From positions 128,001 through 192,000 of the forward strand of contig CAVPOC010000006.1 in NCBI GenBank assembly GCA_963706955.1: a stretch of 64,000 bases of DNA, in the 5' to 3' direction. The stretch is from an uncultured Verrucomicrobiae bacterium. Lineage in GTDB: Bacteria; Verrucomicrobiota; Verrucomicrobiia; Chthoniobacterales; Terrimicrobiaceae. The notes below the pieces were generated by a model. It did not search any database. It worked only from the letters and a program-made list of their open reading frames with translations, and was not told where the DNA came from. The position numbers and the translations under genes were made by a program. Below, piece by piece: positions 21,165 to 24,413 of this stretch (its first letter is position 1; each line of letters begins with the position of its first letter).

Positions 21165-21917
21165 ATGAAACAACCGCAGATTGAAGATCGCTTACTCGCG
21201 CGCAAGCGGCCCCAGTCCGGTTCCCTCCTCCGAATGCGCTGGGAGCAGCTGTTGTTTCTACATTGGGCGTGGGATCCCGCCGAAATCCAGAAGACACTTC
21301 CCCGAGGATTGTTTGTTGATACCTTCAACGGCCAAGCCTGGCTGGGCATCGTGCCTTTTTTCATGAGGAGGGTTCATCCCCGGGGATTGCCTTGCATTCG
21401 CTGGTTGTCCGATTTTCTCGAACTGAACGTGCGCACCTACGTTTTCAACAACTCCGGGCGGCCAGGTATTTGGTTTTATTCGCTGGTATGCAATCAGCCC
21501 CTCGCCGTGGAGCTTGCCAAGCTCTGCTTCCATTTGAACTACGTTCACGCGCGCATGCATGCTCAGGTCGATCAAAGTGCAATCTGTACCTATCAGGCGA
21601 AACGACGTCAAATGCCAGAGGCACAGTTTCGCTTCGAGACGAGATCAGGTCCGAAGAGAGAAACTCAACCGGGTTCGCTAGAGTTCTTTTTGGTCGAACG
21701 TTACTTTCTTTATTCAGCTGATCGCAGAAGCCGCCTCTATTACGGGCAAGTTCATCACCGGCCCTATCGCATCGGTCCTGCCCTTGTCGAAAAATGGAGT
21801 TTCAATCCCGCGGCGGCGGACGGATTCTCCGCTCCCGAGCGCGGACCTGACCACGTGGTCGCAGCGGAGGACCTCCAAGTCGAAGCCTGGCCAATCATCC
21901 CTGATCCGGATTCGTAG
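21165..21917 (+). CDS. YqjF/DUF2071 family protein
   Basis: MRWEQLLFLHW, FLELNVRTYV, PGIWFYSL, FLVERY. Confidence 0.85.
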   Translation: MKQPQIEDRLLARKRPQSGSLLRMRWEQLLFLHWAWDPAEIQKTLPRGLFVDTFNGQAWLGIVPFFMRRVHPRGLPCIRWLSDFLELNVRTYVFNNSGRPGIWFYSLVCNQPLAVELAKLCFHLNYVHARMHAQVDQSAICTYQAKRRQMPEAQFRFETRSGPKRETQPGSLEFFLVERYFLYSADRRSRLYYGQVHHRPYRIGPALVEKWSFNPAAADGFSAPERGPDHVVAAEDLQVEAWPIIPDPDS

Positions 21918-21982
21918 CTCTGCACTGAGAGTTCGCTACTTTTGCATTTTAAGCGTTGGGTTTCGCGGTTAGACTCATGTGT

Positions 21983-22369
21983 ATGGTTAAGAAATTGGAT
22001 CACACGCGTTACCGCGTCACCGACCTGGAAAAGACCGTTCACTTCTACAAGGATGTGCTTGGGCTCGAAGAGGTCAGGCGCAGCACCAGTGGACGCGGTT
22101 CGCAGTTGGTTTTTTTTAAAGCGCCGGAGAGCGAGGAGCTCATCGAGATTTGCAAGTATGATGCCAGCGGGCCGGTCCAGGTTGGACCCGATCTGACGCA
22201 TTTGGCGTTTGTCGTGGACGACATCGAGGCGTTCGCGCGCCATTCGTCCGCCCTGGGATACCCGCTGAGCGACGGTCCGCACACGAGCTCAGACGGATCG
22301 GTCATCGCCTTCGTCGACGCTCCTGAGGGCTACGAGGTTGAGCTCCTTCAACGCGGCAAGAGGGTCTAG
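21983..22369 (+). CDS. VOC family protein (lactoylglutathione lyase-like)
   Basis: HTRYRVTDLEK..FY, HLAF, DAPEGYEVEL. Confidence 0.88.
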   Translation: MVKKLDHTRYRVTDLEKTVHFYKDVLGLEEVRRSTSGRGSQLVFFKAPESEELIEICKYDASGPVQVGPDLTHLAFVVDDIEAFARHSSALGYPLSDGPHTSSDGSVIAFVDAPEGYEVELLQRGKRV

Positions 22370-22432
22370 CTTGTTTCCAAGAAAATTCGCGGTGGGTTGT
22401 GCAGGCTGCGGTATTAGAACCGAGCGGAAATT

Positions 22433-22582
22433 GGCGGGATCTCCTAATGGTAGAGGCGGCAACCCAGGCCGCCCGGCCGTCTACCATTTCAAAGAACGAA
22501 CAACCCGGCCGCTAATGCCCTGATCGGAGGCATCCCCCATACCTCCGATTATATCCCTGCGACCGGGCTGTTCAATTGTGAG
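22433..22582 (-). ncRNA. candidate structured RNA resembling an IS110-family non-coding end (bridge-RNA-like), no transposase
   Basis: 15 bp stem, 9/10 nt internal loop, 11 bp stem; second bulged hairpin; all three stem mismatches are G-U on the minus strand; ends in AGGAG RBS with no start codon. The family assignment is a resemblance from memory. Confidence 0.55.
22548..22575 (-). promoter_or_regulatory. sigma70-like promoter TTGAAC-N16-TATAAT
   Basis: Minus strand TTGAAC (22575-22570), 16 nt spacer, perfect TATAAT (22553-22548). Confidence 0.45.
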
Positions 22583-22591
22583 GAACACATC

Positions 22592-22608
22592 AGCAGAATA
22601 CGTGCCAA
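22592..22608 (-). promoter_or_regulatory. sigma54-like -24/-12 promoter
   Basis: Minus strand TTGGCACGTATTCTGCT, GG-N10-GC spacing exact, one mismatch to TTGGCACG-N4-TTGCW. Confidence 0.5.
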
Positions 22609-22669
22609 TCCTCGCGCAAAGAAGCGGTCTAGGATGTTCCATTCTGTTGCTGAGGCACTTGGCGACAAG

Positions 22670-24413
22670 TTACGTAAGCGGGCGCGCACCGAGAGCATCT
22701 CGAATGTTCCAATTTGCGCAGCGAAGTCGATTCCTGGCGTCTGCTTCGCTAAGTCCAAGACGCGTCGCAACGATGCGGGCCGCGCGATCACGCAGTTTCT
22801 TGTTGGAGGGTTGCAAGCAGGTCATGAGGTTGCCCTCGACACGACCGAGTCGAACCATGGTGCAGGAAGAGATTATGTTCAGGGCCACCTTCGTCGCGGT
22901 GCCAGCCTTTAGTCGGGTCGATCCGGAAAGGAGCTCAGGTCCCGTGGGAAGGTCGATCTGGACATCCGCGCGGACGAGATCTCTTTGGCGCAGCGGATTG
23001 CAGGTCAGCAAAATGGTTGCGGCGCCGCTCGCGTGGGCGGCTTCAAGTGCCCCGAGCACAAAGGGTGTTCTTCCACTCGCGCTTATTCCACAAACGACAT
23101 CTCGACCAGTGACGCCCCGTTCCTTGATGGCCAGCGCTGCAGCGACCTCATCATCTTCGGCCCCTTCCACGCTCGCTTGCATCGCCGACATTCCCCCCGC
23201 GATGATAGCTTGAACGCGATCGGGAGGAACTCCAAAGGTCGGAGGCATTTCACTTGCATCGAGCACACCCAATCTTCCACTGGTTCCCGCGCCCACGTAA
23301 AAGAGTCTGCCGCCTCGTTTCAGCGCTTCCGTCGTAACCTCGATTGCCTGGGACAACGGCTCAATGCACGCCGCCAGAGCCTCTTCCACCCATTTTTCCT
23401 CACGGACAAACAACAAGACAAGCTCTCGGATCGGCATCCGGTCGAGGTTCTCCGAACGTTGATTAACTTGCTCCGTGGATGCTTCTCGCAGGGAGCTTTC
23501 AGCGAGATCTGTGGGTTCTTCAGCGATCACCACGGCCGTGTTGACGGCTAGGAAGGCAGCGCCGAGACTCGGGGGTGTTCGGCAGACCGAAACTTGACCG
23601 CCTGGCCATTCCCGCTTGAGGGCCGCGCCGAACATCCGTGCATAGAGAGGTTGATTAATGAAGACACCTCCCATCAGCTGAATAGGAGGTTTCTGGTAGC
23701 CAAGCCTGCGGCAGACAGCAGCAGTCAGACGGGCCAATGCTTCCGACCCCTCTTTCAAGATTTCACCAGCTTCGGCCTCGTGTTCAAAAAGCAATGGCGT
23801 AAGCCGCGCGAGATCATTCTTCTGCGCAGTCTGAGCCCAATTGGTGAGTTCGCGCAGTGTGTTTAGACCCAAAGTGCGAAGAACGTCACGCGCCAGGGCG
23901 GTGATTCGACGTCCCGTGTCAAAGTCGAAAAGTACCACGGCGAAGGGCACGAATCGCCAAGTCGTAGCCGCCGCCGCTGTCGCCAAGCAGATGCCCCCAT
24001 CCCCCCGCGCGATCTTCATTTCCTGAAAAACGGCCGGTGATGGCGGATCCGGTTCCCGCGATGATTGCGATTCCATCTCCTTCGCCAAAGGCAGCGGCAA
24101 ATCCCGATTCCCGATCACCGCCCACTCGAATCGCCGCATTCGGCCACACGGAGGAGCCAATCCTCTTGAGGTGGCGTCGGTCCTGGAGGGTTGCGCATCC
24201 CGCCATAAAAAGCCCTACGCACGAGGCTTCGGTTGGGAGAACGGACAGCAGTCTGCTCAGGTCCTCCGGCGCGAGCAATTTCATGCTTCCTGGGCCGAGG
24301 AGGCCTTTTCTGACGGGAAACAATTCGCCGGATCGCATTTCGCAGAGCGTCCAGTTGGTCTTGGTCGCTCCTCCGTCGATTCCCAGGATAAGTTGCTTTG
24401 AGACGCGGCTCAC
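22670..24413 (-). CDS. murQ: BadF/BadG-type amino-sugar kinase fused to N-acetylmuramic acid 6-phosphate etherase (one frameshift near 23940)
   Basis: N-terminal GIDGGATKT, IAGTGS, GGWGHLLGDSGG; C-terminal TEQVN, GAGTSGRLG, GAED, STRLKAGTATK; the two ORFs join on removing one base. Confidence 0.88.

Follow-up and report, generated by a model that had tools for sequence, protein, structure and literature searches.

A probably nitrogen-induced small RNA of the Chthoniobacterales with an invariant G-run loop and a plausible pairing partner in the 3' end of hup

The Chthoniobacterales, the order to which the bacterium studied here belongs, hold very abundant soil bacteria. Seed-based control through 3' untranslated regions (UTRs) is a rare exception in bacteria, and decoy RNAs of the CsrB/RsmZ and CrcZ types present repeated purine loop motifs and are encoded by multiple sibling genes, with sigma-54 control in CrcZ. 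NrsZ of Pseudomonas is a stand-alone small RNA (sRNA) with an RpoN promoter and NtrC control, in which a conserved motif in the loop of a stem-loop carries the function; the number of motif hairpins varies between species, and the proposed target is the 5' UTR of rhlA (PMC4253122). The hairpin G-tracts of RsaI (RsaOG) of Staphylococcus pair with C-rich RNA motifs, and one of its partners, RsaG, belongs to the 3' UTR of an mRNA; RsaI is controlled by CcpA, possesses a second, CU-rich targeting region and is not known to have multicopy siblings (bioRxiv 10.1101/278127). GlnZ of enterobacteria, which is linked to the nitrogen response of NtrC, is an sRNA that is set free from the 3' UTR of glnA and represses sucA (PMC9731577). 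Finally, IS110 elements encode bridge RNAs with two guide loops, the first of which is poorly conserved, behind a sigma-70 junction promoter (PMC11208160), and the stand-alone ssr9 MITE of P. putida exists in multiple copies with IS-end boxes on its flanks (PMC12288879).

We compared these systems with a structured element lying on the minus strand of the window (the whole stretch of 64,000 nt that was analysed, from contig CAVPOC010000006.1 of an uncultured Verrucomicrobiae bacterium). The element resembles NrsZ in that an RpoN box lies upstream together with an enhancer common with nitrogen-assimilation genes, in that a conserved loop motif is the predicted functional part and in that the number of motif hairpins varies between lineages; NtrC control would also be shared, as predicted from the enhancer. 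It differs from NrsZ in its unrelated sequence, in its phylum, in having a G-run where the loop of NrsZ has ACAGGCAG, and in its candidate target. With RsaI it shares the hairpin G-tract and may share the contact with C-rich RNA, whereas its control, its single targeting motif and its multicopy siblings are different, and there is no sequence or Rfam match between the two; the origin and the target of GlnZ also set that sRNA apart. By analogy, the RNA probably works like NrsZ in its control and may work like RsaI/RsaG in its contact, as a member of neither family. We found no description of it or its siblings in Rfam 15 or in the open-access literature, and we regard them as an undescribed, well-supported sRNA family, likely nitrogen-induced, for which a pairing partner is plausible.

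Table 1. Features of the sRNA locus (window coordinates).
Feature	Position	Strand	Remarks
VOC/glyoxalase gene, convergent neighbour	21983..22369	+	in 14/16 close loci
Second bulged hairpin, another G-rich loop	22446..22488	-	lineage-specific 3' extension, 11/74 homologues
Predicted small RNA core	22491..22581	-	about 90 nt; fold z-score and family models
U-rich tail after P1	22491..22497	-	at least 4 U within 9 nt past P1 in 65/74 homologues
Outer stem P1, 3' arm	22498..22512	-	covariation
Internal loop, 3' side, with AGGG	22513..22522	-	GGG in 61/74 homologues
Inner stem P2, 3' arm	22523..22533	-	covariation
Apical G-run loop GGGGG	22534..22538	-	predicted functional seed; GGGG or longer in 73/74 homologues
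Inner stem P2, 5' arm	22539..22549	-	sequence variable, covarying
Internal loop, 5' side, with AGGG	22550..22558	-	GGG in 64/74 homologues
Outer stem P1, 5' arm (starts GAACAGCC)	22559..22573	-	compensatory changes
Sigma-54 -24/-12 promoter box TTGGCACGTATTCTGCT	22592..22608	-	conserved in homologues
Possible IHF/HU bending site	22649..22662	-	degenerate here; TAA-N4-YTGAT-like block in most close relatives
BadF-type kinase and murQ-like SIS gene, upstream neighbour	22670..24413	-	frameshift-split into two ORFs
Predicted enhancer, imperfect palindrome of TGY-N10-RCA type	22705..22720	-	inside last murQ codons

An earlier note, made from the sequence alone, had described a 15-bp stem, an internal loop of 9/10 nt and an inner stem of 11 bp on this strand, and these hairpins are real (table 1). 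The core (22581-22490) has a folding energy of -47.4 kcal/mol (z = -7.07, equalled by none of 200 shuffles), all five apical G having an unpaired probability of 1.0; over 22370-22610 the z-score is -3.19 for the minus strand vs -2.03 for the plus strand. The three stem pairs that are not Watson-Crick are G-U on the minus strand, from which selection at the RNA level had been proposed; over 74 homologues the outer stem contains 47 G-U vs 2 A-C cells, which bears this out and fixes the RNA strand. Homologues with covarying stems were found for both core stems. When 16 close copies are aligned without fitting, 98% of the cells are paired and 9 of the 37 pairs have changed on both sides, and a plain MAFFT alignment of 34 copies displays compensatory changes in 5/12 outer-stem pairs. 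The corresponding figures for 74 copies, from a model-fitted alignment biased towards the modelled structure, are 12/12 outer and 10/10 inner pairs, with 98.6% of the cells paired in the outer stem and 81.2% in the inner one. The apical G-run is the most conserved feature, ahead of the internal loop. The RNA is predicted to start 12 nt past the -12 GC of the promoter box and to end at the U-tract, P1 and the U-rich tail being likely its own terminator. The second hairpin of the earlier note is present and covaries among close relatives, but it is lineage-specific (11/74 homologues); other lineages have instead a 5' hairpin followed by GGGGA. An orphan ribosome-binding site noted beyond it (TAGGAG) is kept in 3/16 close relatives and was abandoned. 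So was a small peptide, for which an SD-like word and an AUG in the inner stem open a frame of 14 codons: close relatives do not keep this frame intact, and distant homologues lack the AUG. As for a known housekeeping RNA, Rfam scans gave no relevant match to the element at E-values up to 10 in the window, nor at E-values up to 1 in 13 divergent homologous loci, which covers the 6S, SRP, YrlA, GlmY/Z, NrsZ and RsaI families among others, and the SRP RNA is located elsewhere in the host genome. A 6S RNA candidate also lies elsewhere (C9:8145-8327), at 41 bits, under the gathering score of 46.4. A weak match to the Rfam model narK (E-value 4.1, 22559-22606), whose conserved 5' part aligns on the sigma-54 box, hints that this model partly describes a -24/-12 promoter.

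The host genome contains one copy of the element, by blastn as well as by covariance model. A DNA search gave a single match in each of 16/61 genomes, including 14 of the 18 congeners, and the same site is occupied here and in 15 close relatives, with one copy each. Three successive rounds of covariance models, run on the same 151 genomes of the order, gave matches in 20, 71, and then 91 genomes, the last set representing 12 of the 16 families, one of which has two to three copies. Outside the order, model R2 found nothing in 131 genomes of other orders, and model R3 found no real copy among 146 outside genomes, its three weak matches of 37-43 nt being bare terminators without G-loop or promoter. 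Judged from these loci, the RNA is vertically inherited at one site, other families included. The kinase-murQ pair lies upstream in 16/16 close homologues and is absent from most distant loci; because its gene neighbours differ from one lineage to another and in many cases are convergent, the RNA stands alone, and with a promoter of its own it is the stand-alone structured RNA that had been proposed. A terminator or cis-acting leader without separate RNA function would account for the resemblance of P1 and the U-tract to an intrinsic terminator and for the convergent genes flanking them here; however, the element has a sigma-54 box and an enhancer of its own while the gene context changes around it, the genes downstream vary and in many cases are convergent, and the conservation of the loop sequence and of the inner stem exceeds what a terminator needs. 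We consider this explanation very improbable. Part of 21900-23400 was matched in 24 sequencing runs. We compared the assembled contigs of four mixed RNA runs, contigs that cannot give ends, strand, or level: those of one run cover 22430-22520 and include a murQ contig, those of another fall mainly in the VOC gene and reach the element only in partial pieces, and two runs gave the VOC gene only. The kinase-murQ, rpoN (C5:1-1137), and mdh genes are each frameshift-split in this assembly, and the single frames of kinase-murQ and rpoN in relatives suggest indel errors.

The earlier note had interpreted the element as an internally deleted IS110 (a MITE) or as a stand-alone bridge RNA that would work with a recombinase encoded at another place. 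Its stem does carry an internal loop similar in size to those of the bridge RNA and MITEPpu9-ssr9 (PMC11208160, PMC12288879), two IS110 remnants with stop codons are present in the genome, and stand-alone IS110-linked sRNA copies are known in P. putida (PMC12288879). Sequence comparison nevertheless largely refutes this interpretation, which we now hold to be extremely improbable. Neither blastn nor covariance models gave a match to the two host IS110 loci or their ends, and no transposase match was found in 73/73 homologous loci (0.9-5 kb). A single copy at a fixed site in close relatives argues against mobility. There is one internal loop, not two, and instead of variable guides both of its sides keep a GGG that is conserved across 12 families. 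The promoter is also of another class, a sigma-54 box and not the sigma-70 junction promoter described for bridge RNAs (PMC11208160). The two IS110 remnants have a near-identical left-end sequence, which is unrelated to the RNA.

That the element is equipped with a promoter, as had been claimed, holds for the conserved sigma-54 box and not for a sigma-70-like match at 22575-22548, which falls inside the hairpin and whose -10 hexamer is not kept in relatives. The box matches the RpoN -24/-12 consensus as given in PMC4253122. It was found in 16/16 close homologues, in 19/19 further matches of model R1 and in 16/17 more distant loci, and a strict pattern recovers it in 68 of the 74 copies of the alignment; lying outside every covariance model, it validates the matches independently. 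We found no RpoN DNA-binding domain in the host assembly, where the rpoN gene is present, frameshifted and cut by a contig end; RpoN is encoded in 18/18 congeners and in 146 of the 151 genomes of the order. We consider it very probable that the element is a real sigma-54 sRNA.

For the predicted enhancer we used a palindromic matrix trained on amtB upstream regions only (27/30 amtB loci). The site scores 13.4 with this matrix, is located 112 nt before the sigma-54 box, is kept in close relatives and ranks third among the 147 sigma-54-like boxes of the genome; an Asn AAT codon within it belongs to the 4 codons that are invariant among 168 invariant degenerate murQ positions. Scores of at least 10 were obtained for 33/71 RNA promoters vs 1/71 control windows further upstream, that is, for 12/14 murQ-linked promoters (control 0/14) and 21/57 others (control 1/57), counts that include related, hence non-independent, genomes and murQ-linked sites that are coding as well; the same score is reached in 7 of 1500 random windows, and 36 of the 57 RNA promoters not linked to murQ are without a strong match. 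Within the host genome, 8/147 sigma-54-like boxes carry the motif: those of amtB (part of the training set), PII, this RNA, and glutamine synthetase (two overlapping boxes), one at a gene for a urea/sulfonate-type ABC binding protein, one at an unannotated gene, and one without a nearby gene. Three full-length NtrC-like activators are encoded in the host. Because the enhancer is common to the RNA and the nitrogen genes, we infer that the RNA is probably under nitrogen control. At amtB, a sigma-54 box is found in 27/30 loci; behind it come a short hairpin in the leader and a start region that is A/C-rich and without SD. The possible bending site of table 1 was recognized by the IHF/HU consensus; the host gives a single HU/IHF-family match despite its sigma-54 enhancers.

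A comparison of the host with G160, a genome of another family, exposed a second family of RNAs, about 55 nt long, consisting of GUUCUGGGGGGAACA and then a 15-bp terminator. These siblings have the same G-loop and closing stem as the sigma-54 RNA, and their terminator begins like its P1. They occur in 51/64 genomes of the order, in one to six copies, some of them tandem, with a sequence invariance partly forced by the search pattern; the reversed pattern gave none in all 64 genomes. The host has four copies (C2:+43050, C8:-572969, C9:+130337, and C10:+218061). Siblings are also present in the family where the sigma-54 form was not found, and in a family scored 0/4 by the pattern two genomes do carry a sibling with a varied tail. 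Outside the order, the matches in 3 of 337 genomes have a mismatch and lack the terminator. Many copies begin about 35 nt past a TTGC word, and most have sigma-70-like promoters; a sigma-54 box lies directly upstream of 2/32, which ties the two RNA forms together. The one sibling copy scanned against Rfam gave no match. Matches to a GGGAGG variant of the motif outside the order were dismissed as chance matches without terminator. A phage link was also rejected: a sigma-54 box is missing from all 33 matches that a loose pattern gave in viral contigs, one of which has a sibling copy at its end.

The reading that we favor, with a probability of roughly 0.45, is that a nitrogen-induced sRNA would pair through its G-run loop with C-rich mRNA 3' ends. 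The candidate partner comes from a complement screen of the host against 2.0 of about 2.1 Mb of G160. In both genomes UUCCCCCC, the exact complement of GGGGGGAA, follows the stop codon and precedes a long terminator of hup, a gene (C5:-20015 in the host) whose product was assigned to the HU family. Of 769 ortholog 3' ends, hup alone reaches a duplex energy of at least -14 kcal/mol in strength in the two genomes, where 0.17 such ends would be expected; this lead arose when several motifs and windows were screened. HU relatives were fetched afterwards from 3 genomes and 80 metagenome loci, and in this independent set 29/34 scorable rows near the host HU reach -13 kcal/mol or better vs 0/22 other rows, two genomes of other orders being among these 22. 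The HU tree comprises 57/85 rows, of which the 35 near the host HU do not form a supported clade and the metagenome rows are without taxon; the 28 rows outside the tree are the most distant, and none of them has TTCCCCC. In its conserved form, the tract behind hup reads UUUCCC(C/U)CC. Its changes are mostly C to U, which would be tolerated because G-U pairs form, and since the seed is invariant, compensatory change between the two RNAs cannot be seen. The hup gene lacks a G-rich SD that could pair with the tail. Cofolding a sibling RNA with the hup tail gains 8.0 kcal/mol; the sigma-54 RNA gives no gain and leaves five G exposed, in a program that cannot form loop-loop contacts.

As a partner hup would not be the sole one, because at a threshold of 1e-10 no HU match was obtained in G068 and G086, two of three further genomes of the order and both near-complete, which carry the sibling RNA and, in G068, also the sigma-54 form. 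Two genomes of other orders do give an HU match. C-rich tracts are also found after other, genome-specific genes, in G160 after genes that, from their sequence, we take to be ilvC-, sod-, rpmA-, and ppdK-like. Against a mononucleotide shuffle these tracts are not in excess (2/31 vs 2.0, and 6/26 vs 3.3 with a maximum of 6), and being genome-specific they may represent a general signal, rich in pyrimidines, that a protein reads at 3' ends. The tract may be a class of targets, or a protein's pyrimidine signal with incidental complementarity. No conserved TCCCCC was found at gene starts (-40..+30 or -100..+45) among 749 ortholog pairs. We rejected two further targets: across 29 other genomes the C-run that precedes sucB is not conserved, and the rRNA operon contains no run above four C.

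Under the favored pairing reading, nitrogen shortage would act through an NtrC-like activator to cause sigma-54 transcription of a rod of about 90 nt, which would terminate at its own U-tract and present the G-run seed for a loop-to-single-strand contact. The seed, together with those of the siblings, would then pair in trans with C-rich 3' ends, best seen in hup, and either alter mRNA stability or neutralize a C-rich RNA cut from the mRNA 3' end, while the siblings would feed other signals into the same partner. This amounts to a testable circuit, with a promoter and enhancer of the amtB/PII/glutamine synthetase type, an invariant seed, siblings, and a named candidate partner, in a host in which our searches did not find the usual sRNA helpers (Hfq, CsrA, and RapZ). 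If true, 3'-end pairing would connect HU, a nucleoid protein, with nitrogen status and show sRNA action where translation rarely uses Shine-Dalgarno sites. A wider version, an order-wide G-seed sRNA network with one nitrogen/sigma-54 member and several sigma-70 members targeting C-rich 3' elements of hup and other mRNAs, in a lineage that would have neither Hfq nor CsrA and would make little use of Shine-Dalgarno sites, seems to us rather unlikely, and we are equally doubtful that seed control via 3' UTRs would be its main mode.

The main rival explanation would have the sigma-54 RNA and its siblings act as decoys sequestering a G-run-binding protein, for instance an RRM protein, in the manner of CsrB/RsmZ or CrcZ. 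Single-stranded GGG is repeated at the apex and on both sides of the internal loop, with an extra GGGGA in the 5'-extended forms, the siblings are multicopy and under different promoters, and stem lengths are conserved; moreover, the host has two RRM genes, and families of sRNAs are bound by RRM proteins in Bacteroides (PMC11697453). On the other hand, the motif here is a G-run and not GGA, and CsrA was found in none of the 19 genomes of the genus (6/61 relatives have it). Hfq and RapZ were not found in the host genome, which is 92.5% complete, nor was Ro60/TROVE found in it or among the scanned neighbours; the results for RapZ and Ro60/TROVE speak against a GlmY-type decoy and a bacterial Y RNA, respectively. 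No conserved G-run site, at which such a protein would act as a repressor, was seen at mRNA starts among 749 ortholog pairs, and a decoy leaves the complementary hup tract unexplained. We therefore hold the decoy to be possible, though doubtful. A Shine-Dalgarno mimic, whose G-loop would bind the 3' end of 16S rRNA and hold small subunits during nitrogen starvation, is improbable. The 16S rRNA keeps its CCUCC tail while an SD-like word precedes 11% of 2751 crudely called ATG genes, and one homologue has a GGGAGG loop; yet pairing between loop and 16S tail gives a duplex of only -8.4 kcal/mol, and 73/74 loops have a plain G-run where GGAGG would pair better.

REP-like repeated hairpins occupy many intergenic sites of the host genome (e.g., C1:+182716, C3:+314484, C3:+587877, and C8:-246000). 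They are often preceded by GTAG and have CCCCC or GGGGA loops according to strand, and transcribed copies could pair with the G-loop RNAs too.
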